Shown: piece by piece, positions 653 to 42,782 of the stretch
Position numbering within the stretch: position 1 is the first letter of the stretch
How the letters are laid out: every line of letters starts with the position of its first letter
From: Candidatus Bilamarchaeaceae archaeon
Lineage (GTDB): Archaea; Micrarchaeota; Micrarchaeia; Anstonellales; Bilamarchaeaceae
Assembly: GCA_038870635.1 (NCBI GenBank)
Contig: JAVZJR010000001.1
Location: forward strand, 1 to 64,000
Length of the DNA: 64,000 nucleotides
Reading direction: 5' to 3'
The notes under the pieces: model-generated
Database searches by the model: none
What the model was told of the DNA's origin: nothing
The model's input: only the letters and a program-made list of their open reading frames with translations
Translations under genes and position numbers: made by a program

Positions 653-815
653 TTTATCTTGAATGTTGGCAAGATTAACATTGTTCCATTTACAAGGTTT
701 TTCTTTCTAAGAAAAAACTTCACCAAGGACGCGATCTACCATCGATCTACAACCGGCCAGTATTCTTTGAGACATAAGTTTATTTAAAGATTTAGCAAAT
801 CTGTATTAAAAAAAA

Positions 816-844
816 GAAAAAAATTATTTGCGCCTTCAGATACC
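816..844. repeat. left copy of perfect 29-bp inverted repeat (gaaaaaaattatttgcgccttcagatacc)
   Basis: Exact reverse complement of 3446-3474, read directly from sequence. Confidence 0.95.
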
Positions 845-855
845 ACAAATCCTCC

Positions 856-1434
856 TTACTCTTTTGTGATTTGGACTGCTGGCAGGCTGAAAAGCAGCTC
901 AAACGCATCTCCTCTATTCACATCCAATCTATAGTAAATCTCGTTTATCTCGTTGTCAGGGCAAACATATGGATATGTAGAGAGCCTGCGGCCGTAATGC
1001 GCTTTTTTGAAAATTCTCTCTAGTTCAAAAGGTATGCCGAGCGTCCTGAACGCTTTCCTTACTGAATACTCAACCCTTGGATTTTGCGTTCTTACCGATA
1101 CTGAATCACACCCAATCATCCTGCCATAAAATATCCTTGCTATAGTTAGCAGTGTGTGCAACCCTTTGCCTTGGTGCTCAAGGCATACCGCATCGCCGCT
1201 CAAGTAGAGATTGGTTTTATTTATCTTGATGAACCCAAAGCCTACGGGCGTATCGTCAAACAGAGCAACATAGTGCTGCTCAGCATCCCTTATATGCTCA
1301 AGTACCTCTTGCCTTTTCATCGTGGGCCCAAATGCACTTAACCCCACTTTAATAAGCTGCTCTTCAACCAGAGGAGTTATTTTCCCAAGCTGTTTTATCC
1401 TATACTCAGAATTAGTCTCGCCAAAGACCAGACA
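856..1434 (-). CDS. GNAT-family N-acetyltransferase (frame open to 1434; N-terminus apparently frameshifted)
   Basis: Acetyl-CoA motif A-like EHQGKGLHT and 'VGFGFI' strand. The track ORF is 856-1347, but the frame stays open up to TAG 1435-1437 with no ATG upstream of 1347. Confidence 0.7.
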   Translation of the reverse strand, partial: CLVFGETNSEYRIKQLGKITPLVEEQLIKVGLSAFGPTMKRQEVLEHIRDAEQHYVALFDDTPVGFGFIKINKTNLYLSGDAVCLEHQGKGLHTLLTIARIFYGRMIGCDSVSVRTQNPRVEYSVRKAFRTLGIPFELERIFKKAHYGRRLSTYPYVCPDNEINEIYYRLDVNRGDAFELLFSLPAVQITKE

Positions 1435-1501
1435 CTACGATTTCGTTTTGTATTTTCCTGTTTTCATTTGCCGTCTTCATATTTTCCTTTGCCGTTTCCA
1501 T
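1412..1501 (-). CDS. 29-aa ORF (METAKENMKTANENRKIQNEIVVSGLWRD), probable N-terminal part of the GNAT gene
   Basis: ATG at 1501 preceded by GAGGTGA RBS (1506-1512); overlaps the GNAT frame by 23 nt. Confidence 0.55.
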   Translation of the reverse strand: METAKENMKTANENRKIQNEIVVSGLWRD

Positions 1502-1555
1502 AATTTCACCTCATAATAATTATAGCATACTCAACTTTTAATACTTTTCTATTTT

Positions 1556-2527
1556 TTAAGTTTTTGCGGTGAGCATAAGGTTCATGTAAATATCCACAGC
1601 CTCCCTTAGCTCTTTTATTCTTATCTTCTCGTTTTTGGAGTGCGCGTCCTCGAGCTTTCCAGGTCCACATATCACACCTATACCGCCAGCCTTCCACCAG
1701 AAGAACATTTCAGTAAACGCAGGATACAGGTCAACGCTCCTCTTGCATTTCACAACCCTTGGCATCCTCACGCTCTCAATGCAATTCTCAATGGTGACCT
1801 TTCCGTTGCTGCACGCCTCTCTTATTTTCCTAATCAGCACCGTGTTATTCCCGACCGTTCTGAACGACACTCTCATTTCTGCATAGTCTGGAATCACGTT
1901 GTCCGCAATACCCCCTTTTACGACCCCAATATTCACAAATTCCCCTTTTGTTAGCCTAATCTTTAGCAGCCTATTCATCGCATCATTCATCTTAAGGACC
2001 GCACTCTCGCCCAGTTGCGGCATCGAAGAGTGCCCAGCCTTGCCTTTGAATTTAACGTGCGCAACCACAATCCCCTTCTGCCCGAACACGCACGCATTTC
2101 CGGAAGGTTCTCCTACTACAAAGAATTTTGGTCTCACCAGCGGCGCCGCCTTCTTAGCACCTTCAAACCCCCTTTCCTCATCAACAGTGAACACCAGCCC
2201 GAAATCATCAATCAAATCGAAAAGCTTCTCACCTGCGCACACCATAGCGGCAATGCTGCCTTTAGTGTCGCATGTTCCCCTTCCATATAGGTACTCACCC
2301 TTTTTCTTCAACGGGACATAAGGCTGCACCGTATCCATGTGTGCTGTTAATATCTTTTTCGGCTTCCCCTTTTTCGCAATTATATTGAACGCATTCCCTA
2401 CTTTCTGCTTCTCCACATCGAACCCCAACGTCCCGCAAATGTCCGCAAGGTACTCGCCAATCTTCTGCTCCTTTCCAGATGTAGACTCTATCTTAACAAG
2501 CTCCTCGAGCAATTTTACCGGATCCAT
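1556..2527 (-). CDS. M20 family metallopeptidase/deacylase (ArgE/DapE/LysK-like)
   Basis: HMDTV, YGRGTCDTKG, DEE, GEPS, GKAGHSS and C-terminal AHS..E motifs. Confidence 0.9.
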   Translation of the reverse strand: MDPVKLLEELVKIESTSGKEQKIGEYLADICGTLGFDVEKQKVGNAFNIIAKKGKPKKILTAHMDTVQPYVPLKKKGEYLYGRGTCDTKGSIAAMVCAGEKLFDLIDDFGLVFTVDEERGFEGAKKAAPLVRPKFFVVGEPSGNACVFGQKGIVVAHVKFKGKAGHSSMPQLGESAVLKMNDAMNRLLKIRLTKGEFVNIGVVKGGIADNVIPDYAEMRVSFRTVGNNTVLIRKIREACSNGKVTIENCIESVRMPRVVKCKRSVDLYPAFTEMFFWWKAGGIGVICGPGKLEDAHSKNEKIRIKELREAVDIYMNLMLTAKT

Positions 2528-2665
2528 AATTATACTTATTCCATGTAAGGATTAAAAACGTGCATTCCATGGTATGAAAACTAAACATATATTAAATGGA
2601 CAAACATATGTATAACTGGTGAATGAAATGCAAGGTGAATTACTTCACTAGGAGACCCTTAATGG

Positions 2666-2911
2666 GTGAATGGCTTCATACGGCTAGATAAGAAAGGCCG
2701 GCTAGTTTTGCCTGCAACCGTCCGCAGGATACTAGGGGATGAATACGTGCGCATACGGCTTAAAGGCAATAAGGTCTTCATCCTTGCCTGCTTAGAATCA
2801 GATATAAGCGGAAATAGGAATGCTACACAAACTGCAGGCGCAAAGCAACCCCCATTCAAATCCACATGCATACGGCGTAGATCTCGCAACGTTTGGGAGG
2901 TGTTAAGATGA
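2666..2911 (+). CDS. AbrB/MazE/SpoVT-type DNA-binding protein
   Basis: N-terminal RLDKKGRLVLPATVRRILG swapped-hairpin signature; start uncertain (GTG). Confidence 0.65.
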   Translation: MNGFIRLDKKGRLVLPATVRRILGDEYVRIRLKGNKVFILACLESDISGNRNATQTAGAKQPPFKSTCIRRRSRNVWEVLR

Positions 2912-3420
2912 TAATCGAGGTTGTAACCGCGGGCCTTCTTGTGCGCAGTCCCTACAGAAGGGGGCTTATGCGCGCATATAAGAGGGTCTTTGAGGGCAAG
3001 CCCTGGTATGAATCATGGCCTATGCCTCTTGTAGAGAAAGAGTTCCGCTCGCTTGCAAAGCAAATCCCTTTTGGCTACATTGGACTTGAAGGCGAAAAGC
3101 CAATTGCCTTCATAATTGCAGTGAACCGTGCGATCCGCGACCCCGTGATGTGGAACGGCATCTATATTGCGGAGTTTGGTGTGATTCCGGAGATGCAGTG
3201 CCGTGGTCTCGGCACAATTCTCGCCCAAACATTTGTGGAACAATTCCGCAGCGAAGGTCCTTTCATGTTTAGGACTCTGAATCCTGTCGTCCCATTAATT
3301 TTTAGAAAATTATGCTACGTTGAGTGTATGGGTTGCGCGAAGGACGACTCCTATGCAAAGGTTCTACTACTTAGCAAAACCTGTCAAAATGGATGTCAGC
3401 CAGCCACCAGTCCAAGTTAA
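2908..3420 (+). CDS. GNAT-family N-acetyltransferase
   Basis: YIAEFGVIPEMQCRGLGT motif A and 'F...PWYESW' N-terminal motif; ATG 2908 follows GGAGGTG RBS. Confidence 0.8.
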   Translation: MIIEVVTAGLLVRSPYRRGLMRAYKRVFEGKPWYESWPMPLVEKEFRSLAKQIPFGYIGLEGEKPIAFIIAVNRAIRDPVMWNGIYIAEFGVIPEMQCRGLGTILAQTFVEQFRSEGPFMFRTLNPVVPLIFRKLCYVECMGCAKDDSYAKVLLLSKTCQNGCQPATSPS

Positions 3421-3445
3421 GTATATTAAGATTGATGAGACCTGC

Positions 3446-3474
3446 GGTATCTGAAGGCGCAAATAATTTTTTTC
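3446..3474. repeat. right copy of perfect 29-bp inverted repeat
   Basis: ggtatctgaaggcgcaaataatttttttc is the reverse complement of 816-844. Confidence 0.95.
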
Positions 3475-3523
3475 AATATTTGGTTTTCATGACCATCTTA
3501 GCTGTTTTTAGGTATTCTTACTG

Positions 3524-3668
3524 TTTTCTTGGCTTCTTACTGTATTCTCTGTATTTCTAATGTTTTCTATGTGCCGTTACTCCGGTTTTCATCGGTGCCG
3601 GCAGGGGTTTTTATGTTTTCTCCTATTTTCTTGGCTTCTTACTGTTTTCTCTGTATTTCTAATGTTTT
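3524..3668. repeat. 43-bp direct repeat (3524-3566 and 3626-3668, one mismatch) around a 59-bp spacer
   Basis: ttttcttggcttcttactgt[a/t]ttctctgtatttctaatgtttt occurs twice. Confidence 0.9.
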
Positions 3669-5031
3669 ATTTATGATTGCGTAAGGAAGTTAAAAGTTCC
3701 TGATAAGAGGATTGAATTTTTTCCAATAAATCAGAATTACCAAAATCACCAATGTAAAGATAATGAGCTGCTTTACCATATTCTGCGATATCATGCCACT
3801 CTCGTGTTCTAATCTGTATTTCATATTTAGAAAAAGTATCATCGCGGGGGTCTATATCAAGATGCCAACTCTTATAACCTCGTTCGGTATTATAAAATTT
3901 TTCATCTATTTTATATTTTTTATGACTCAAAGGATTAATGGTCCGTACTACTTGACAAACTAAGTCTTTTACAGCATCAACTATATTCTTATTTTCCTCT
4001 TGACTAAGTTCAACCAAAGGCTTTCCTTTAAATTTGTCTATTATAACTCTAAGAGCAACAAGGTCATTAAAAAAATCAAAAAGGGACAACTCAGATAGGA
4101 CTTTTTTCTGTTCATTTACCTGCTTCTCAGAATCAACATTACCATGTGCTATGATAGAAGGGTAATCTTTTCTTAACCTAAACGCAAGTTTCTTCATTTG
4201 CTTTCCCAGATTTTTCTTTTCACGCAATTGCAATTCAAATTCGAAATCCATCGAACTTAGCGCGCCTTTAATAGCTTTTCTTATAGAGCGAACTAATGCA
4301 CATGTTGTTTCTAGTCGATGAATAGTTTCACTATCTTTATTAAATTTAACTATTGTCTCAAACAAATAAGGATGATTTACAGAATAAGATTGCAAAAAAA
4401 TTTCACCTGCTATAGATGGATACCCAAAAAGTTCTGCTACTTGCGCCAAGAATATCTCGCCAAATTTAGCTGTATTTAGAGTGACAATATCTGCTTCTTC
4501 TTTTGATTTATAAAACCTAAAAATCGGGTTATAATTTTTCTTTATAAATCGAAATGTTTTTGAATCATCTAAGTGTGTTTGTGCAACATCGATTAATACA
4601 GCAGGAAGGGCGGCAGGAGGGGCGCCACTATGATTTACAGCGTTAACAAGCTCTAAAGGTTGGGCGCCACTTCTGATTAGATTAGTAATAAGGGAAAACT
4701 TTTGTAACTCCAATAGTAAAACTGCAGAATTTTTAACAACTTCAGGAAGCTCACAATTATTTGGATTTACGTGGCTCATATCGATAGTGTGATAAAGAAG
4801 AATTTCGGTTAGTATTGAATTAAAGTTCTTAATCCCCTCATCAACATTTACTTTTCCATTTATAACGCGTTTATCTACAACATGAGAACTAATAGCAAGA
4901 TTAAGAACGCGTTTTCCATGATCATATAACAATAATTCGTTGTGTTTTTTAAAGAAATTTCGAGCACTTAAAATACGGCTTCTTAAATTTCTAGTATTAC
5001 AGCTGTCTGCACAAAATTTTTTATAATCCAT
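3667..5031 (-). CDS. RelA/SpoT-homologue-like protein (degenerate HD region plus nucleotidyltransferase/synthetase domain, no TGS/ACT)
   Basis: DLVALRVII, GYKSWH and EIQIRT..WH..AEYG.AAHYLY motifs; FLAQVAELFGY resembles the RSH YAPLA.RLG linker. Confidence 0.75.
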   Translation of the reverse strand: MDYKKFCADSCNTRNLRSRILSARNFFKKHNELLLYDHGKRVLNLAISSHVVDKRVINGKVNVDEGIKNFNSILTEILLYHTIDMSHVNPNNCELPEVVKNSAVLLLELQKFSLITNLIRSGAQPLELVNAVNHSGAPPAALPAVLIDVAQTHLDDSKTFRFIKKNYNPIFRFYKSKEEADIVTLNTAKFGEIFLAQVAELFGYPSIAGEIFLQSYSVNHPYLFETIVKFNKDSETIHRLETTCALVRSIRKAIKGALSSMDFEFELQLREKKNLGKQMKKLAFRLRKDYPSIIAHGNVDSEKQVNEQKKVLSELSLFDFFNDLVALRVIIDKFKGKPLVELSQEENKNIVDAVKDLVCQVVRTINPLSHKKYKIDEKFYNTERGYKSWHLDIDPRDDTFSKYEIQIRTREWHDIAEYGKAAHYLYIGDFGNSDLLEKIQSSYQELLTSLRNHK

Positions 5032-5044
5032 ACAATGTTATTTT

Positions 5045-6052
5045 TTAAAACAATTTAAAAAACTTTGCGTGTTTAAGTTCTTCGATATTTTTGCTTCCAG
5101 TAAGAAATGCAACTGTCTTTAACTGCTCTTTCCATTTTGTGAGTTCTTCATCTAATCTTTTGTTTTTCAAAGCAAGAAGAAAAGGTTGGGCTGCGCCTAC
5201 CATATCCGCTCCTAGAGCTAAAGCCTTTGCTGCGTCTATACCGCTCCTTATGCCGCCGCTTGCTATTAAAGGCAGTATACCTTTACACATAAATATACAC
5301 TCTACAGTAGGTATACCCCACTCTTCAAAACCAGGAACAGCATGTTTATTTCTCTCGTATTCTATTTTGCTCCATGATGTTCCCCCTGCGCCAGCAACAT
5401 CAATCCACTTCACACCTGCATTTGCAAGCTTAACTGCCACATCAGTACTTATACCAGCCCCTGTTTCTTTTACAATGACAGGCACCGAAATATTTTCACA
5501 GACACGCGTGATGGCATCAAGCACTCCTGAAAAATCCCTATCGCCCATCGGTTGGATAACTTCTTGCAAAGGATTTAGATGTATGGCAAGTGCATCTGCT
5601 TCTACAACAGAAACAATAGATGAGACTTGCTCTATACTATATTTTTTTAGTTGAGCCGCGCCGATATTCGCGATGATTGGGATAGTTGGCGCAACATTTC
5701 TTATTTTGTAGGTTTGAGTTAAAGAAGGATTCTCAACCATAGCGCGCTGCGATCCCAAACCAAAAGCAATTTTATGCTTTTCTGCTAATTCTGCTAATTT
5801 TTGGTTAAGCCGCTCTGCACCACTATAACCACCGGTCATAGCAGTCATCATTAAAGGAGCGCTTAATTTTTTGTTAAGAAAGGTTGTAGAAATGTCTATT
5901 TTGTCAAAAGAACATTCTGGTAATGCATTATGAACAAAAACAATTTTTTCAAAGCCAGCGGATGTAAGATATTGTGTCTTTTTATTAAGAGATAAAAAAA
6001 TGTGATCAGACTTTCTTTTTGATATTTCCACAGTAAGCACCCTATCTTGCAA
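5045..6052 (-). CDS. fni: type 2 isopentenyl-diphosphate delta-isomerase (FMN)
   Basis: RKSDHI, AMTGG, GSQR, HLNPLQE, VKETGAG, GAGGTSW, ASGGIR motifs. Confidence 0.97.
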   Translation of the reverse strand: MQDRVLTVEISKRKSDHIFLSLNKKTQYLTSAGFEKIVFVHNALPECSFDKIDISTTFLNKKLSAPLMMTAMTGGYSGAERLNQKLAELAEKHKIAFGLGSQRAMVENPSLTQTYKIRNVAPTIPIIANIGAAQLKKYSIEQVSSIVSVVEADALAIHLNPLQEVIQPMGDRDFSGVLDAITRVCENISVPVIVKETGAGISTDVAVKLANAGVKWIDVAGAGGTSWSKIEYERNKHAVPGFEEWGIPTVECIFMCKGILPLIASGGIRSGIDAAKALALGADMVGAAQPFLLALKNKRLDEELTKWKEQLKTVAFLTGSKNIEELKHAKFFKLF

Positions 6053-6779
6053 GCGGATATTTTTCCATGTACATCTCAGTTTGTAGTATTATTAAAAATG
6101 GTAAAAAAACAATTGAATTTAGTAGGAGAACTAAATACTGCGCGAAAACACCTGCTAGAATTAAATCAGCAAAAAGTTTAGATAAGATCAACAAAAATAC
6201 TCCAGTCAATAACCATGTGAAAATCAAAACGGGCTTTCTAATTGCAAGATCAGCAGATCGTATAAAGGCAGTAGAAAGATCAGAGTTATCAATAACAATA
6301 GCAGGTGGAATAAAAAATAACAAGAAGTATATTAAAAATAATAAAAATGGATAGATAAATTTTTGGAATGGTGCATCATACAGTAGTATTTGAAGAAAAA
6401 ACTGAACAATTAATAGAAGAGTAAAGAATATGAAAATTTTAGTAACATGAGTTGGTATCGCACTTACCATTTCCTGTGTAGTTTCATTAAGAGTACGTTT
6501 TGAACGTATAAGAATATTTATATTTACGATAGTATCGGATATTATAAAAAGCGAAAGTATATAAGCAACTAGAATAAGAACAATATCCCCTATTGAAAAC
6601 TCAGGCAAGCTACCCGTGCGAATAAAAATACCACCTGCTGCTGCGTAGGTTGGAGCAGGAACAAATATTGGAATCACAAAAGCAAAGAAAAAAGGCAAAG
6701 AAAACAATGCAATAAGTAATATCTTACTTAGATAAAAATCTATAGAATAATAAAAAATTCTTTTTAAATCTTCAAACAT
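6042..6779 (-). CDS. multi-pass membrane protein
   Basis: About six hydrophobic segments; coupled to neighbours in the operon. Confidence 0.75.
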   Translation of the reverse strand: MFEDLKRIFYYSIDFYLSKILLIALFSLPFFFAFVIPIFVPAPTYAAAGGIFIRTGSLPEFSIGDIVLILVAYILSLFIISDTIVNINILIRSKRTLNETTQEMVSAIPTHVTKIFIFFTLLLIVQFFLQILLYDAPFQKFIYPFLLFLIYFLLFFIPPAIVIDNSDLSTAFIRSADLAIRKPVLIFTWLLTGVFLLILSKLFADLILAGVFAQYLVLLLNSIVFLPFLIILQTEMYMEKYPLAR

Positions 6780-6787
6780 AAAAACAC

Positions 6788-7363
6788 CTACTTATCAAAC
6801 TTTTTCACAGATGCTACTGTGTTATTTTTTAATATATTAACAATATAATAGCTCGAAGATGAGGGGGAATCCCATTTAACTTCCCATCCATCACCAACAT
6901 CACGAGCTACTCCATAAACATCATTATATGATCTTAAATAAGAGGCAACATCCTCTGTTCCTGGAAAAGTATGAGAAGCAATAAGTGCTTCTTCTGGAAA
7001 AGCAAGCACGCAAAAGTTTTCAGAACACACACTACAATTAGTTGTTATTATTTCTGGCTGCCGCGGTACAAAATTTTGGATTGGGTAATTATAAAACAAA
7101 TGTACTCTTTCAGGACAGGGCCCACCTTGACCATTTGTGACTTTTGCTTTTATTTCGAAATATTTCTCATTTTTCTCATTTACGAACTCTTGTACACTTA
7201 TTATCTCTATATCTGCTTTTGGATATTTTGAATGAAGATCTTCGATAACAAATTTGGTAGCATCAGCCTCTACTACATGTGTCTTAAAAAACTCCCCGAC
7301 TTTAACTACAGAAATTATAACAATAACTATGATTATTAACCAGAGTATATTTTTTTTAAGCAT
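6788..7363 (-). CDS. membrane-anchored hypothetical protein
   Basis: N-terminal TM helix and Cys cluster; operon context. Confidence 0.75.
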   Translation of the reverse strand: MLKKNILWLIIIVIVIISVVKVGEFFKTHVVEADATKFVIEDLHSKYPKADIEIISVQEFVNEKNEKYFEIKAKVTNGQGGPCPERVHLFYNYPIQNFVPRQPEIITTNCSVCSENFCVLAFPEEALIASHTFPGTEDVASYLRSYNDVYGVARDVGDGWEVKWDSPSSSSYYIVNILKNNTVASVKKFDK

Positions 7364-7387
7364 AAAATGACATCTCAGAAAGTTTTT

Positions 7388-7720
7388 TTATTCTTTCTCT
7401 TTTAGAAGGAGAATCGCTTCTGCCATGTCACCCTTTGTTTTTTTTAATGCTTCGCGAGCTTGTTCCTCACTACATCCTGCCTGTTCCATAACAACTCTTA
7501 CGTCTTCATCTTTAAGGCTTTCTTCAAAAGATACAACACCACTTATTTGAAAAGATTTCTGGCCGCGCATATCGATCTCTATAACTTCTGGGTGGGATAT
7601 CACATAATTACCTTCTTCAGTTTCTATTACTACTCGCTTTGATTCTATTTTGCGTGACTTTATACCCATTTGGCGCATAATCTGTTCTATCTTATTTGGA
7701 TCAAGACCGCCAGCTATCAT
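7388..7720 (-). CDS. nac: nascent polypeptide-associated complex protein
   Basis: MRQMGI, FQISG and C-terminal UBA-like GDMAEAI. Confidence 0.93.
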   Translation of the reverse strand: MIAGGLDPNKIEQIMRQMGIKSRKIESKRVVIETEEGNYVISHPEVIEIDMRGQKSFQISGVVSFEESLKDEDVRVVMEQAGCSEEQAREALKKTKGDMAEAILLLKEKE

Positions 7721-7730
7721 AAAAACGCCT

Positions 7731-8339
7731 TCACTTAAATTCTTCTGCTCGTTCCGATTTGCGGACCTCTACTCTCTTCATTTCAGTTATTTGTTTTAAA
7801 CGATTAAACAACCTAGCCGAAAATCTTCCGTATACTACATCTTGCATAAGTTCATCGAATGTCTTGTCGCTTGCAGCTTTTTTAACATCATCAACTAAAG
7901 CATTTCGTATATTTCTTCGTGTATTTTCACTCACCTTTGATTGAGTTACTGCTATAAGCTTTAAACGCACACTTTCATTATCTTTTGTTTTTATGTCAAC
8001 AACTTGATGAATAAGAGATTTTCCCCTTCTTGCAAAAGTCTTTATAAAAGAAGGGGCGATTTCATGCCCTATCAATTTTGTATTTACATTAGAATCACTG
8101 ACTGATGTTATTCTAAAAGAAAGATTGGTAAACATAGCTATTTGAGATGAAGGATTACTAAGACCTAATTCAAAAAGGCTTACGCGAACCACTCTGTTTA
8201 TAAGATTTGATTCGTCACTAGAAACCACTTCTCCGATAGGTTTAAATTCAAAAGCAGCAGGGGCAAGAATAGTATACCACCTTTTTGTTTTCCATTTATC
8301 AACAACTTTTTTCTTCTTGTCAGCCATGTAATCCCTCAC
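7731..8339 (-). CDS. rps3ae: 30S ribosomal protein S3Ae (eS1)
   Basis: DKWKTKRWYTILAP motif; likely start 8327. Confidence 0.93.
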   Translation of the reverse strand: MRDYMADKKKKVVDKWKTKRWYTILAPAAFEFKPIGEVVSSDESNLINRVVRVSLFELGLSNPSSQIAMFTNLSFRITSVSDSNVNTKLIGHEIAPSFIKTFARRGKSLIHQVVDIKTKDNESVRLKLIAVTQSKVSENTRRNIRNALVDDVKKAASDKTFDELMQDVVYGRFSARLFNRLKQITEMKRVEVRKSERAEEFK

Positions 8340-8791
8340 TTAACTAAAAGCTCTGCTTGTTCTGCATTATATTTCCAATCAGAAGGAAGAATCCCTTCTT
8401 TCTTCAAGTATTTAGCAAGACGATTTATTTTAGAAATAACATGAAGGTACTTAGTTTTATTATGAATATCTTTTTTTGCATTTTTAAGATGCTTATTCAT
8501 ACGAACTGACCTTTTTATAAGATCCAAGAAATCAGCAGGATACCGCCCATAAAGGTTATTCTTTCTAAGAAAAGTAGTTAAACGAACTCCTAAGATCTGT
8601 CGAACATCTGGCACGGCGTATTCATCTCTTAAAACAATCCCTATTTTAGCAGGATGAACACCCTCTTTAGCCATTTTAGTAATCACTTCGATTATTTCTT
8701 CTTTATTTACTTCTACCCAATCAGGTTTTACCTTTTTTTTGGGCAGCTTTCGGCCCGACTTTCCTTTTTTTCTTGAATGTAATCTTGCCAT
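8336..8791 (-). CDS. rps15: 30S ribosomal protein S15 (uS15)
   Basis: MARLHSRKKGKSG, IGIVLRD, LPSDWKY. Confidence 0.97.
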   Translation of the reverse strand: MARLHSRKKGKSGRKLPKKKVKPDWVEVNKEEIIEVITKMAKEGVHPAKIGIVLRDEYAVPDVRQILGVRLTTFLRKNNLYGRYPADFLDLIKRSVRMNKHLKNAKKDIHNKTKYLHVISKINRLAKYLKKEGILPSDWKYNAEQAELLVK

Positions 8792-9375
8792 TAATTCACC
8801 TCAAGTAATATAATGTTTTTTAGATGTTCTATAAATAACAAAAGAGATTTATATCTATGGGATAGTTTGTTTTTTAATTCTATGTTTTCAGCGAATGTAT
8901 TAGAGTAACCATCTGGAATAAAAATTGGGTCATAACCAAAACCAGAGTGGCCTCTATTTTTTTCAGCTATATGACCAGAACAAACACCTCTAAAAAAAAC
9001 AATTTCTGCGCCATCGAGAGTAAAAGCAATAACTGTCTCAAAGCGTGCACGTCTATTTTTTCCTTCTAAAAGTTTCAGAATACCATCGTTACCTATTTTT
9101 TTCTGCGCCCATGCTGAATATGGACCCGGAAAATCATTAAGTGCTTCTATAAATAAACCAGTATCCTCAACAAAAACTGGCCTTTTTATTTGAGAATAAG
9201 CAGATAGAACGGCTTCTTCCGCAACTTCCATTAAATCATCAGCACGAATCTCTCTATGGATAAAAGTGAAATGATTTAGAATTATTGACTTCTCACAGTG
9301 AATTGAAAAAATATCTTTTGCTTCCTTGAATTTGTTTTCGTTAGATGTTGCAAAGTAAATTTCCATAAATATCAT
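8791..9375 (-). CDS. rdgB: RdgB/HAM1 non-canonical purine NTP pyrophosphatase
   Basis: FATSNENK, EDTGL, GFGYDPIF, SHR motifs. Confidence 0.95.
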   Translation of the reverse strand: MIFMEIYFATSNENKFKEAKDIFSIHCEKSIILNHFTFIHREIRADDLMEVAEEAVLSAYSQIKRPVFVEDTGLFIEALNDFPGPYSAWAQKKIGNDGILKLLEGKNRRARFETVIAFTLDGAEIVFFRGVCSGHIAEKNRGHSGFGYDPIFIPDGYSNTFAENIELKNKLSHRYKSLLLFIEHLKNIILLEVN

Positions 9376-9382
9376 TCGGACA

Positions 9383-11575
9383 TTACTGATCCAAAAAGAA
9401 CTGTGCAGTAGGTGGTTCTGGCTTTTCGCCCTTCCTCTCTCTAATTTGTCGTACTACCTTTCCAACTAATTCCTTAGGCAACGGGTGATAACCTGCATAC
9501 TCTTGATACCAAATGGCTCTACCTTGAGTTACACCTCTTAAATCATTGGCAAAACCAAACATTTCCGCAACCGGCAAAAGAGTTATTATAGTGGCGTTCT
9601 CACCTTCTTGTTGCATATCAACTAACTGCCCTCTCCTTCCATTTGTAAGATTGATGACATTTCCTGCATACTCTTGTAAAGTGTTTATTAAAACTTTTTG
9701 CTTTGGCTCGAGCAAAGAAACACCTGCCATTAACAAAGCCGCATAAATTGCCCTTTTTATAGTAGGTATCATTTGTGCAGGACCACGATGAACATTATCT
9801 TCATGCAAAGTAGCATCAACAAGTTTTACTTTTACGCCAGTCACACGTTCTTTTGCAAGCGGCCCCTGGTCTAATGCCTCCTCAAAACCTTGAATTAAAA
9901 GCTCTTCCACTTCATTTAGATACTGAATACCTTTTGTTGCGTTTATGAATATACTCGCGTTATGTATGTCGTAAACATTTTTAGCTTCTTCACGATCCAT
10001 ACCAAGTGCTACAAGTTGTTCGACAATTTCTTTGCCTTTTGGCCTTCCTTCTTTTATTTCACCATCTAAGATTGCATTTACAATCGCTGGTTCTAAAGGT
10101 TCGACTGTAACTTTTACGCGGTTGTGTTTATTAGGTGATTTTCCTTCTACAGGCGGAGATTTGTTAAATATTGCTTCACGATAAACTACTATTGGCGGAG
10201 AAGTTACTATAGGTATTTTCTTTTCATTTCTTATCTTATATTCAATAATCTCAAGATGTAACTCACCATTTCCACTTATTAGATGTTCACCGGTTTCAGC
10301 AAGTTGCACTTTTAATGTTGGGTCTTCCTTTGATATGCTGCGCAATGCTTCAATAAGTTTTGGAAGATCCTTTTGATCTTTTACATCTATAGATTTTGTA
10401 ATAACAGGTTCTGAGTAGTGTTTTATTTGTTCAAATGGAGCAATCGGCTCTGCGGATATTGTTTCACCAACATAAACGTCCTTAAGACCAACAACTGCAC
10501 CAATGTTACCGGCAGTTACTTTCTCAGCTGGTACTCGATCTGGGCCCATATAAATACCAACCTGCTGAACTTTCGCGTAAGTCTTTTTAGAAGATATGTA
10601 AAGCTCCTGTCCTTTGGTTATCGTACCGGAAAACAAACGAAGAACTGCCACTTCTCCTGCGTGCTCATCATAAACAACACCAAAACAAACACTTACAACT
10701 TTTGAATTAGGATCGCAGTTAAGCATTGCTTTTCCAATCTCGCTGTTTAAATCTCCTTCTTTCCAAAGAATAGGTATACGATATGTTTGAGCAACTTTGG
10801 GTGAAGGAAGATGTGTTATTATCATCTCTAAAAGAACTTCATCTAAAGGACTTCGTTCAACAAGATATTTATGATCACCTTCAATACATTTTTGATACAT
10901 CTCTTTAAATGTTATATTAAACTTTTTCATGGAGTTAACAGATAAAGCCCACTTGTTGAATGCTGTTCCAAATGCAACATTTCCTTTATTCACATCTATT
11001 AGCCATTCTTCTTTTTTGTCAGGGGGCGCATTGGCAGCTATTATCTTATTTACTTGCATTATTATCTTCAAAAATCTTTCTTGCATCTGTTTTGAATCAA
11101 GTTTAAGTTCATTTATGAGACGATCTATCTTATTTATAAAAAGGACTGGCTTTGCTCTTTCCTTAAGAGCCTGACGAAGGTTTGTTTCTGTTTGTGGCAT
11201 AACACCTTCTACTGCATCAACAACAAGACAAATACCATCAACTGCTCTCATAGCCCTTACCACGTGAAAACCAAAATCAACGTGGCCGGGTGTATCAATT
11301 AAATTAATAAGATAATTTTTGCCCTCAAATGTAAAACCCAATGATACATTAGCAGATTTTATTGTGATCCCTCTTGCTTGTTCCTGTTCATCAAAATCTG
11401 TCCATCTTTGCTCACCCGCAAGTTCCTTATTTATTAAGCCTGCGCGCGCGATTAAGCTATCGGTTAGTGTTGATTTTCCATGATCAACATGTGCTACTAT
11501 TGCAACATTTCTAACATTATCTATATTGTCCATCATCTTTTGTACTTCTTCAACTACAACTTCTTTTCTCGCCAT
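9383..11575 (-). CDS. fusA: translation elongation factor aEF-2
   Basis: AHVDHGKS, RGITI, DTPGH, NKID and diphthamide loop HEDNVHRGPAQ. Confidence 0.98.
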   Translation of the reverse strand: MARKEVVVEEVQKMMDNIDNVRNVAIVAHVDHGKSTLTDSLIARAGLINKELAGEQRWTDFDEQEQARGITIKSANVSLGFTFEGKNYLINLIDTPGHVDFGFHVVRAMRAVDGICLVVDAVEGVMPQTETNLRQALKERAKPVLFINKIDRLINELKLDSKQMQERFLKIIMQVNKIIAANAPPDKKEEWLIDVNKGNVAFGTAFNKWALSVNSMKKFNITFKEMYQKCIEGDHKYLVERSPLDEVLLEMIITHLPSPKVAQTYRIPILWKEGDLNSEIGKAMLNCDPNSKVVSVCFGVVYDEHAGEVAVLRLFSGTITKGQELYISSKKTYAKVQQVGIYMGPDRVPAEKVTAGNIGAVVGLKDVYVGETISAEPIAPFEQIKHYSEPVITKSIDVKDQKDLPKLIEALRSISKEDPTLKVQLAETGEHLISGNGELHLEIIEYKIRNEKKIPIVTSPPIVVYREAIFNKSPPVEGKSPNKHNRVKVTVEPLEPAIVNAILDGEIKEGRPKGKEIVEQLVALGMDREEAKNVYDIHNASIFINATKGIQYLNEVEELLIQGFEEALDQGPLAKERVTGVKVKLVDATLHEDNVHRGPAQMIPTIKRAIYAALLMAGVSLLEPKQKVLINTLQEYAGNVINLTNGRRGQLVDMQQEGENATIITLLPVAEMFGFANDLRGVTQGRAIWYQEYAGYHPLPKELVGKVVRQIRERKGEKPEPPTAQFFLDQ

Positions 11576-11600
11576 ATTTCATCCCACCAAAAATAAAAAG

Positions 11601-12215
11601 CTATCTGGCGCTTCTTGCGATGCGCTCAATCTCGTCTTTTTTCTTTATAGCATAACTATTCTGTAAATCACCTTTAGCGGTGTAAATAATTTCATCTGCT
11701 AAAGAGTTTTGAAGTTTTTTCTTTTTACCAAAAGAACCCATCAACGCAGCTAAGGTAATATTTCTTAAAGCCAAATCCAATCTTCTTGTCGCAGAAACAT
11801 CTACTGCAACCTGATAAGTGACCCCACCATAAGAAACACGAGTAACATCTTCGTTAGGTGCGGCGTTTTCTAAAGCACGGATTAGAACTTGTAATGGGTT
11901 TTCTTTTGTTTTTTCTTCTACAATAGCAAAAGCCTCTTCAACAATTCGCATCATTCTTAGTTTTTTTCCTTGTAGTCTACCGTGTGTTCTTATTACCTTT
12001 CCAGAAGTTTTTTCCCCTGTACCTCCTCTTAAAAGTTTATTTATAAGGCGTTCAACAACATTTACACCAATCTTTCCAAAATGCTTCTTTTTATGACGGG
12101 CAGAAGTATGTGGAACGCTGATCGGATTAAGAGAAATCACTTGTGCCAAACTTTTGTCATTTATTACAAGATTATCAAAAGGATATTTACCGAAAAGTTT
12201 ATCCATAAACATCAC
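11601..12215 (-). CDS. rps7: 30S ribosomal protein S7 (uS7)
   Basis: [30 protein letters not shown]. Confidence 0.97.
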
Positions 12216-12652
12216 CTCTTAGGCTTCTCCTTCTTACCCTTTCTAAGCATTTGAAGATCAGCATTGTTAACAGCCACTACTTTATACCTCACACCAGGAA
12301 TAGAACCCATCTGCCCTCTTTGAGAACCACCAAGACCTGCTATTATCACTTCATCATGCTCATCTATAAAAGAAATACTCTTATCTCTAACTGCGTGGGC
12401 GCTTACTATCTTCCCATTTTTCACCAATTGCACTTTTACACATTTGACTAACCCTGAGTGCGGCTGCTTTTGTTCAAGCACGATCTTTTCTAAAACGATT
12501 CCCCGTGCTTGCGGTGCACCTTCGAGTGGGTCAAACTTTTCCTTTAAGCGAAGTGTTTTTCTTTTAAAGCGCTTTGACAACCACCTTCTCTTTTTTCTAT
12601 TTCGCAATAGGTTAGTGCCTGCAAATTCCCCATTTTTACCTTTCTTACTCAT
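12212..12652 (-). CDS. rps12: 30S ribosomal protein S12 (uS12)
   Basis: [28 protein letters not shown]. Confidence 0.97.
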
Positions 12653-41771: not shown

Positions 41772-42782
41772 TTAATCAACTTTGAATTGTCTAACTTTGA
41801 TACCTGCTTCTTTAAGCAATTTCATAGCGCTTTCTGAAATAGGATATCTCTCATTGTAAACTACTTCCACTATGCCGGCGTTTATTATCATCTTAGTACA
41901 TAACAAACAAGGTGAAAAAGTTGTATAAATAGTGCAGCCCTTTGTACTAACACCGTTATACGCAGCCTGTACTATCGCATTCTCCTCTCCGTGAGAACAA
42001 AAACATTCATCAAGATTTTTGCCACTTTCAGTAAAATTGTTACAACGCGGGCAGCCACCCTCATTGCAATTTCGTGTTCCACGAGGAGTACCATTATAGC
42101 CAGTGGATATTATCTGCTTGTCGCGAACAATAACTGCTGCAACTTTTCTTTTGATACAATTACTTCTTGTTGCAACTTGTTTTGCGATGCTCATAAAATA
42201 CTCATCCCAACTTGGCCTATCTATTTTAAACTCAGTCGATATGTCAGCTAATGCACGATCTATTTGTTCATAAAAAGAAGAAAGTTGGCCGTTATTCTCT
42301 ATTTTTTTATCTGCCATTGCAAAAGTCTGCTTAAGATTTTGCTTTGTTCTTTCTGCATTTTCCATTTCAAGTTTTTCTATCTCTAAAAATGCTTCTAGAG
42401 TTTTTGGATCTTCCTCTCTTCCTCTTTTTTTCAATCTCTCAAAACGAACTTCTGGCGAAGCTGTGATGTAGATCAAATAAAAATTTTTTAGACGCCGTAA
42501 TTCTTCAACTTCCGCGGGATTTCTTATTGAATCTATCACGTAATTTTTATCCTTTGTTATTTTTTCTTTTGCACGTACTGCAAGCACAGAAGGACCAAAT
42601 TTTTCCCTTAATTCATTTCCCTTTTTTATCAATGCTTCTCTTGTCAAGGCCTTTCCTTCTGCTTGCAACTCCTCTCTTATTATATCAGAGAGAGATATAG
42701 GATAAAATCCTTTTTTTGAAAGATAATAGACAGCAGTAGTCTTACCAGCACAATTTTCACCAGTTAACCCTATGTAAAGCAT
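41772..42782 (-). CDS. P-loop kinase + dCMP deaminase fusion
   Basis: N-term GENCAGKT and VIDSIRNP.E; C-term RPSWDEYFM, GYNG, HGEEN, PCLLC. Confidence 0.92.
   Translation of the reverse strand: MLYIGLTGENCAGKTTAVYYLSKKGFYPISLSDIIREELQAEGKALTREALIKKGNELREKFGPSVLAVRAKEKITKDKNYVIDSIRNPAEVEELRRLKNFYLIYITASPEVRFERLKKRGREEDPKTLEAFLEIEKLEMENAERTKQNLKQTFAMADKKIENNGQLSSFYEQIDRALADISTEFKIDRPSWDEYFMSIAKQVATRSNCIKRKVAAVIVRDKQIISTGYNGTPRGTRNCNEGGCPRCNNFTESGKNLDECFCSHGEENAIVQAAYNGVSTKGCTIYTTFSPCLLCTKMIINAGIVEVVYNERYPISESAMKLLKEAGIKVRQFKVD

Follow-up and report, generated by a model that had tools for sequence, protein, structure and literature searches.

A predicted RelA-like synthetase with a degenerate hydrolase domain, from an apparently undescribed long-RSH-derived subfamily of Micrarchaeia

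The window analysed here is a stretch of 64,000 nucleotides from a Candidatus Bilamarchaeaceae archaeon, and the gene of interest lies on its minus strand at positions 3667..5031. It encodes a protein of 454 aa, referred to below as the RSH protein, composed of a pseudo-HD domain, a linker and a synthetase (SYNTH) domain, without TGS, ZFD or ACT domains. The degenerate RSH HD domain occupies residues ~10-190 (4462..5004, minus strand), the linker and core helices typical of long RSHs residues 191-265 (4237..4461, minus strand) and the SYNTH domain residues 266-430 (3742..4236, minus strand). The gene idi2, coding for a type 2 IPP isomerase (5045..6052, minus strand; TIGR02151, E=4.8e-118, together with synteny), is the conserved upstream neighbour and is itself preceded by a gene for a conserved hydrophobic protein of 245 aa (6042..6779, minus strand), which opens the memb-idi2-RSH block in most relatives. 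Still further upstream, a same-strand run (6788..12652, minus strand) encodes S12, S7, aEF2, Ham1, S15, S3Ae, NAC and a hypothetical protein; this run is attached to the block within this genus only. The original prediction had the RSH gene start 13 nt after idi2, within an unbroken minus-strand run that opens with rps12-rps7-aEF2. Both statements were confirmed: the ORF coordinates give a gap of 13 nt, and the genes S12-S7-aEF2-Ham1-S15-S3Ae-NAC-hyp-hyp-idi2-RSH follow one another without a break on the minus strand. No tRNA gene adjoins the RSH gene and no second copy of its N-domain was found elsewhere in the genome.

Immediately behind the RSH stop codon is a dispersed intergenic repeat (3504..3668, strand unassigned) with units of ~100 nt, copies on five contigs and very high contig depth. 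Directly downstream of RSH lies an island of 2.6 kb (window 809-3481) with 45% GC, bounded by 39-nt inverted repeats and containing two GNATs, an M20 peptidase and a weak MraZ/AbrB-like ORF. It occupies the slot of Lrp-glnA in relatives, and Lrp and glnA homologues are found elsewhere in this genome. At window positions 41772-42782, a nucleotide-kinase-like AAA domain is fused to a dCMP deaminase.

A Pfam search of the RSH protein gave RelA_SpoT at residues 309-426 (E=2e-11), and the HMM search proposed for the original prediction (PF04607) was positive, with 44.6 bits against a curated cut-off of 27; besides RelA_SpoT, no Pfam family was found at E<=0.05. The synthetase motifs follow one another in canonical order, as had been described: R270-x-x-K273, whose spacing is one residue more than that of Rel's RxK, DLVALRVII (D323), GYKSWH (Y386, H390) and EIQIRT..WH..AEYG.AAHY (E404-Y424). 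The key residues of the domain are R270, K273, K281, D323, R328, Y386, H390, E404, Q406, R408 and AAH421-423. An alignment was made of the protein, SpoT and RelA from E. coli, and the 102 divergent RSHs from Micrarchaeia that reach at least 320 aa; in it the catalytic set corresponds to SpoT R236, K238, K246, D259, R264, Y303, H307, E319 and Q321. Among the 20 members of its subclade R270, K273, K281, D323, Y386, E404, Q406 and H423 are invariant, H390 is conserved in 19, and the position of R328 holds Arg or Lys in all 20. The residues shown to be important in T. thermophilus Rel, namely R249, D272, R277 and Y329 (bioRxiv 670703), map to R270, D323, R328 and Y386. Judged from the alignment, the synthetase catalytic residues are intact.

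Some positions differ from those of Rel. The Ser of Syn1 (SpoT S242) is replaced by Lys in 20/20 subclade members (K277 in the RSH protein), and the K.NGY loop reads T.RGY, with T382 and R384 where Rel and most subclade members have Lys and Asn. As K277, T382 and R384 lie near the substrates, they count against a plain Rel-like (p)ppGpp synthetase. With respect to the acceptor, a guanosine-type signature AVR/SxH/IR has been distinguished from an adenosine-type signature RYT/GxN/YH, with the reservation that these motifs by themselves do not determine specificity (PMC12226406). The RSH protein has ALR/SWH/IR and is of guanosine type; RYT/GxN/YH, the signature of (p)ppApp synthetases (Apk/Tas1), is absent from it, and the (p)ppApp product considered in the original prediction is therefore disfavoured. 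A second RSH-derived gene of this genome (G000:C1:119133-120057, L002), located beside purH, is broken by a frameshift into frames of 169 and 168 aa; four members of its cluster are intact at 331 aa, so split and intact alleles both exist. Since its Syn3 motif is GFN, which fits the adenosine-type GxN signature, it is a possible (p)ppApp synthetase.

An AlphaFold model of the full RSH protein had a pLDDT of 84, and when it was compared with the PDB the first 15 rows were long-RSH structures. The match to T. thermophilus Rel (6s2u) had a Z of 19.6 with an rmsd of 3.8 over 310 aligned residues (model residues 12-414), whereas small synthetases reached Z <=10.7; structure prediction against the N-terminal half of Rel, the second check proposed, was thereby positive. 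Whole-length profile comparison with canonical Rel gave a probability of 99.85, and the segment FLAQVAELFGY, which had been likened to the linker of long RSHs, aligned to Rel's IYAPLA.RLG. By these models and profiles, the RSH protein corresponds to the catalytic half of long RelA/SpoT enzymes and is not a small synthetase. It has the HD-fold domain joined to SYNTH through the long-RSH linker that defines long RSHs, whereas small alarmone synthetases consist of SYNTH without an HD-fold domain. HDxxED, which marks bifunctional Rel/SpoT, is missing from it. The reported absence of TGS and ACT is borne out, with only 31 residues following the AAH motif, and the TGS His and ribosome-binding ZFD/RRM that characterize ribosome-activated RelA are lacking together with their domains. 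A conserved adjacent antitoxin gene, as expected of a toxSAS, was not found, the conserved neighbours being idi2 and a convergent Lrp gene. The protein has no hydrophobic segment.

The N-terminal domain was also modelled alone (residues 1-210, pLDDT 91), and the ten best matches among 48,161 chains were RSH HD/SAH domains, that is, hydrolase domains and small hydrolases. The match to SpoT had a Z of 10.9 (rmsd 3.8, 154 aligned), which is modest for a helical domain; despite the modest Z, the list of matches to this model is coherent. Foldseek returned nothing for the model at E<=0.001. Profile comparison of the isolated domain with canonical HD gave a weak direct probability of 9%, and 97.7/93.5% by way of an intermediate profile that shares some sequences with the queries. 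These structure and profile comparisons indicate that what had been called a long helical region consists of a degenerate RSH HD domain with the linker of long RSHs after it, an identity that had been missed.

As originally stated, there is no recognisable HD-hydrolase motif: HDxxED is absent and H81-T82 stands at the site. The Asp of HD and both residues of ED are lost, as are the equivalents of R39, R140 and N143; H38, H81 and D148 align to SpoT H48, H72 and D139, whose equivalents we take to be Mn ligands in Rel. In a 61-row alignment that includes 45 divergent sequences, none of the 45 has the HD Asp, and the equivalents of H38, H81 and D148 are kept in 36/45, 37/45 and 37/45, all three together in 34/45. 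In E. coli RelA all three are lost (R58, F82, E155). The hydrolase motif is thus broken, yet three of four metal ligands are conserved. Canonical hydrolysis by the N-domain is unlikely on this pattern, and a metal or ligand site is plausible. A further histidine, H153, is specific to the subclade and conserved in 19/20 members; an HD-like motif picked up by a regular expression in 6/20 of them proved by eye to be the THDTE stretch at H153 and not the canonical site. It is conceivable that the His-His-Asp set, with H153 in the subclade, forms a re-wired metal site which hydrolyses the alarmone or another phosphoester, so that the enzyme would be bifunctional by a non-standard chemistry. The retention of the three residues, the conservation of H153 and the lack of a separate HD_4 hydrolase in the genomes of this genus searched would fit such a site. 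Against it stands the loss of the HD Asp and of ED, together with that of the equivalents of R39, R140 and N143, and we consider this reading improbable.

The protein has much in common with E. coli RelA, namely an HD-fold domain without HDxxED, the long-RSH linker, the full Syn1-Syn5 set and the guanosine-type signature. It differs in lacking TGS, helical, ZFD and ACT domains, in keeping His-His-Asp, in four insertions and the Ser to Lys change in Syn1, and in a dead hydrolase of separate origin. The best structural match, over residues 12-450, is the N-terminal catalytic half (NTD) of bifunctional Rel (T. thermophilus 6s2u, B. subtilis 8acu, RelSeq 1vj7), with which the RSH protein shares 15-18% identity and from which it differs by the loss of the hydrolase catalytic residues; it ends where engineered Rel NTD fragments end. 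With SAS/toxSAS proteins (RelP, RelQ, CapRel, FaRel2, Tas1/Apk) it shares the SYNTH fold and the lack of C-terminal regulatory domains; unlike them, it has the HD-fold domain and long-RSH linker (Z 8-11 vs 19.6), no adenosine-type signature and no conserved antitoxin neighbour.

RSHs had been described as only sporadic in archaea. This does not hold here, as the RelA_SpoT domain was found in 105/401 Micrarchaeota genomes, a count that includes small synthetases and canonical Rel. It occurs in 57/75 genomes of the Bilamarchaeaceae and in 0/30, 1/94 and 3/83 genomes of three other large families, and a profile built from close relatives of the RSH protein matched in 53/401 genomes. Loci were taken for most, not all, matches and gave 120 distinct ORFs, among them two E. 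coli references, six canonical Rels and seven CapRel-like proteins. Most divergent forms have 480-680 aa with a tail of 100-190 residues. In those that have diverged least, this tail gives a TGS match (Pfam E=2.9e-4, slightly short of the cut-off; profile 98%). The C-terminal tail of the Bilamarchaeaceae forms gave a weak direct match to the TGS profile (4%) and 98.2/98.4% through an intermediate profile that shares some sequences with the queries. Most relatives thus retain a degenerate TGS, and the RSH protein has none. The TGS His is known to read the tRNA CCA end (PMC7797070), and it is replaced in the TGS-bearing members of the Bilamarchaeaceae.

A quick IQ-TREE tree was calculated from 61 rows, for which 45 of the 102 divergent sequences were picked by hand for spread. 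All 45 were united (SH-aLRT 99) in a group to which the canonical Rel of family f20 does not belong, and the RSH protein fell into a TGS-less group of 12 rows (97) inside a Bilamarchaeaceae clade of 29 rows (97). Because short tails occur in two other branches of this clade as well, at least three losses of TGS within it are probable. A single origin of the divergent Micrarchaeia RSHs is likely rather than established, given the long branches and an outgroup that is not one clade. A FastTree tree contained long-branch joins among f6 and CapRel-like rows, and those placements were not used. A broader profile retrieved long Rel/RelA and HD-SYNTH-TGS proteins of 480-510 aa. The short RSHs of this kind (~480-510 aa; P0118, P0169), and Atlas look-alikes of 547-566 aa that are labelled Saccharimonadota on very few records, share the architecture of the TGS-bearing Micrarchaeia forms. 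Two of the short RSHs, P0118 and P0169, are likewise without an intact HD and form the nearest branch in the tree, a position that long-branch attraction may explain; unlike the TGS-bearing Bilamarchaeaceae members they keep the TGS His. The RSH protein, though similar to RelA, is not RelA; it is a predicted synthetase derived from long RSHs and belongs to an apparently undescribed subfamily of Micrarchaeia.

Other RSH genes were encountered in the survey. Family f20 of the Micrarchaeia has a canonical full-length Rel (HD-SYNTH-TGS-ACT with intact HD) beside L7Ae (L039-L044), on a branch apart from the divergent forms. Tandem RSH paralogues stand at the idi2 slot in loci L006, L012, L013, L030, L081, L087 and L124, and in such tandem loci the members of a separate TGS-less clade (~440-470 aa) stand beside partners that vary. 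Synthetases of 355-385 aa (L048, L050, L054, L055, L060, L062, L066) form one clade, which we take to be CapRel-like; L048 matches PADLOC PDC-S33 with E=1.7e-123.

The gene itself is archaeal. The concern that it might be mis-binned bacterial DNA is answered by its Micrarchaeota relatives, its synteny with idi2 and a bridging contig: the named matches among close relatives are Micrarchaeota, four of the six members of the 90% cluster of the protein are named Ca. Bilamarchaeaceae, and a contig from a second study (X4, 4717-5843) spans RSH and idi2. It evolves fast, with 29-45% identity to 10 relatives compared with 53-69% for idi2. In eight pairs of relatives, none of which includes the RSH gene itself, dN/dS was 0.13-0.38 and so below 1 in all eight, one further pair being saturated; two pairs of canonical Rel gave 0.05 and 0.07, and neighbouring genes mostly 0.00-0.24, save three rows that were apparently mis-paired or mis-called. 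These ratios indicate that the RSH family is under purifying selection and that the gene is kept. That the locus holds an inactive remnant, or mis-binned bacterial DNA, is accordingly a view to which we give little weight: a dN/dS above that of canonical Rel and one relative split into two frames (G235) would fit a remnant, against which stand the invariant catalytic residues, and bacterial origin is opposed by the relatives, the X4 contig and a GC content of 0.325 for the gene against 0.349 for the genome.

The cluster member P0093 differs in 21/454 residues, 17 of them in residues 1-190 (the pseudo-HD domain), and its neighbour proteins, for which the same strain is the presumed source, differ in 1/245, 4/191 and 1/191. 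In run X4, 41 differences were counted over 2,085 nt on two contigs (RSH with the end of idi2) and 3 over ~6,550 nt on five contigs upstream. Of the variants that fall within the RSH gene among 40 of the 88 listed, 11 change a codon's meaning and 7 are silent. In two pairs of relatives the dS of RSH (0.19 and 0.12) is far below that of most neighbours (0.40-0.59 and 0.56-0.86), as expected after allele exchange. In its variation RSH resembles genes engaged in conflict, or those that sense a variable cue, and this fast, N-terminally skewed pattern suits a role in conflict better than a housekeeping one. The protein might then be a dormancy or anti-virus effector that pyrophosphorylates tRNA CCA ends or other 3'-OH groups, its pseudo-HD restraining it until a trigger arrives, like a fused toxin-antitoxin. 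This would be in keeping with divergence from relatives much faster than that of idi2, the P0093 and X4 patterns, the low dS in two pairs, tandem paralogues in seven genomes and the substrate-side substitutions K277, T382 and R384; tRNA-modifying RSHs are moreover without a clear sequence signature (Kurata preprint), those that pyrophosphorylate tRNA (FaRel2, CapRel, PhRel) being characterized by the CCA end as acceptor and a basic patch on the surface. The fixed chromosomal slot beside core genes speaks against an effector, as do the lack of a conserved antitoxin-like partner, of a PADLOC match at E<=0.01 and of any relative among 23 candidate stretches in viral contigs, the long-RSH rather than toxSAS ancestry and dN/dS <1 in all eight pairs. 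On balance such a role is unlikely, although it is the alternative that we take most seriously.

Synteny was assessed in 61 genomes with the family RSH locus in view, some loci being short. The gene idi2 is upstream in 32/61 and Lrp or glnA downstream in 30/61, and neither is present in 21/61. Translation genes lie upstream in only three other genomes, all of this genus (G064, G074 and G291), and in G291 the run is interrupted. In 11 genomes the gene before the block is divergent and encodes FNR or a PQQ-repeat protein, and the idi2-RSH gap ranges from 13 to 384 nt in 32 genomes and is at least 55 nt in 26. The RSH gene also has a promoter signature of its own, which the original prediction had missed: a TATA box (TTTAAA, -28 to -23 from the RSH ATG; 5054..5059, minus strand) begins 28 nt upstream of the ATG, in the last codons of idi2, and is followed by a conserved TGTTTTA element at -21 to -15 (5046..5052, minus strand). 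A TATA hexamer at -31..-27 was found at 36/59 first ATGs of the family as against 3/700 internal ATGs; a looser promoter scan gave 53/65, with TGTTTTA at -21..-15 conserved in part of these. When the same TATA test was applied to this genome with crude gene calls, 66/250 head-to-head genes and 6/264 tightly coupled genes were positive, the RSH gene being among the six. On inspection by eye, a ribosome site of GGTG type stands before most of the upstream genes and not before RSH.

Because of these TATA statistics and the position of the box ahead of the RSH ATG, the gene most likely has its own leaderless transcript, as far as sequence can indicate, and the superoperon arrangement is most likely a local rearrangement; read-through from upstream into RSH may occur. 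Co-expression with translation genes, as originally proposed, is not supported as a conserved trait, these genes being found upstream in three other genomes only. It is very doubtful that RSH is a stringent factor coupled to the ribosome, transcribed together with S12-S7-aEF2 and switched on by uncharged tRNA. The unbroken same-strand run with its 13-nt gap, the identical gene order in G064 and possible read-through would suit such a factor; the lack of TGS, ZFD and ACT, the wider gap in 26 of 32 genomes, the divergent gene before the block in 11, the rarity of a TATA box among tightly coupled genes and the missing GGTG-type site all speak against it.

The promoter of a GGDEF protein with a GGEEF motif (G000:C3:75621-76856, L152) closely resembles the RSH promoter. 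A shared RSH-GGDEF regulon was considered and rejected, the promoter box being present in only 3/30 GGDEF loci. GGDEF domains occur in 64/99 genomes of the Bilamarchaeaceae, and bacterial-type second-messenger enzymes are therefore common in the family. In the Lrp promoters of f1 loci (e.g. L010, L015, L024), two copies of a palindrome of the form AACAAATGTT lie within the Lrp-glnA spacer ahead of Lrp and make a candidate Lrp operator; a possible link of the promoter box to this palindrome was judged by eye only. The adjacency of Lrp-glnA hints at nitrogen control and is broken in this genome.

Taken together, we lean, with moderate confidence, towards a (p)ppGpp synthetase that works without the ribosome and is under the control of its pseudo-hydrolase. 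An ancestral HD-SYNTH-TGS form would have spread through the Micrarchaeia and then lost TGS in the lineage of the RSH protein. The enzyme would act as a one-way pyrophosphokinase that transfers PPi from ATP to the 3'-OH of GDP or GTP, giving (p)ppGpp, and would not be switched on by starved ribosomes, since it has no ZFD/ACT or TGS. The pseudo-HD of RelA gates synthesis (PMC8012599). Likewise, the pseudo-hydrolase here may be an allosteric switch, possibly one that binds a metal or ligand, and the leaderless promoter would provide a second level of control. The product would be expected to slow growth through GTP-using proteins and to be cleared by a separate enzyme. An HD_4 hydrolase was found neither in this genome, which is 89.55% complete, nor in five of five others of the genus, and HD_4 matches occur in 32/75 genomes of the family. 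Across the 401 genomes, 77 have HD_4 matches, many in frames of 350-520 aa without a nearby synthetase (L138-L151), which are possible separate hydrolases; none is in this genus. As candidates for clearing the alarmone, the genome has only two Nudix proteins and a further HD protein; no Ppx/GppA and no IMPDH above the cut-off were found in it, and phosphoribosyltransferases were. The missing HD_4, Ppx/GppA and IMPDH and the few candidate clearers count against this reading, as does the fast variation skewed to the N-terminus.

As regards the literature, archaea have been listed as having no long RSHs and sporadic small ones (PMC3153485), and tests of archaea for (p)ppGpp have detected none (PMC10249747), as far as the accessible text of these papers goes. 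RelA/SpoT genes of proposed bacterial origin have been reported in Diapherotrites, Woese-, Pace- and Nanoarchaeota; as here, these are RSHs in DPANN, and the accessible text neither lists Micrarchaeota nor gives the architecture (PMC8407392). That paper was the only relevant one among the accessible literature on ppGpp or RSH in Micrarchaeota, DPANN and Woesearchaeota, which included few subscription papers, and the main text of two Micrarchaeota genome papers contains no mention of ppGpp, SpoT, stringent or alarmone. Members of the subfamily could already be contained in the supplementary Fig. S34 of PMC8407392 or among the RSHs tabulated in bioRxiv 575399. RSH genes of other DPANN are already in print; the present analysis adds the retention of the metal triad, the gene's own promoter signature and the variation between strains.

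With this family, which derives from long RSHs and is kept by purifying selection in much of one archaeal class, it could readily be asked whether ppGpp is made by any archaeon. The RSH protein has a complete synthetase site and neither ribosome-binding parts nor a hydrophobic segment, so that it should be testable without an archaeal partner, and the metal triad kept in a broken hydrolase poses a second clean question. A bolder proposal, which we hold to be speculative and rather unlikely, is that Micrarchaeia run an inherited ribosome-independent alarmone system on this class-wide RSH subfamily, in which the former hydrolase has become a fast-varying His-His-Asp metal or ligand sensor, possibly with a new chemistry, that reads a host, virus or nitrogen cue. 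If true, signalling of the (p)ppGpp type would for the first time be known to work in archaea, under a form of RSH control that has no earlier description.
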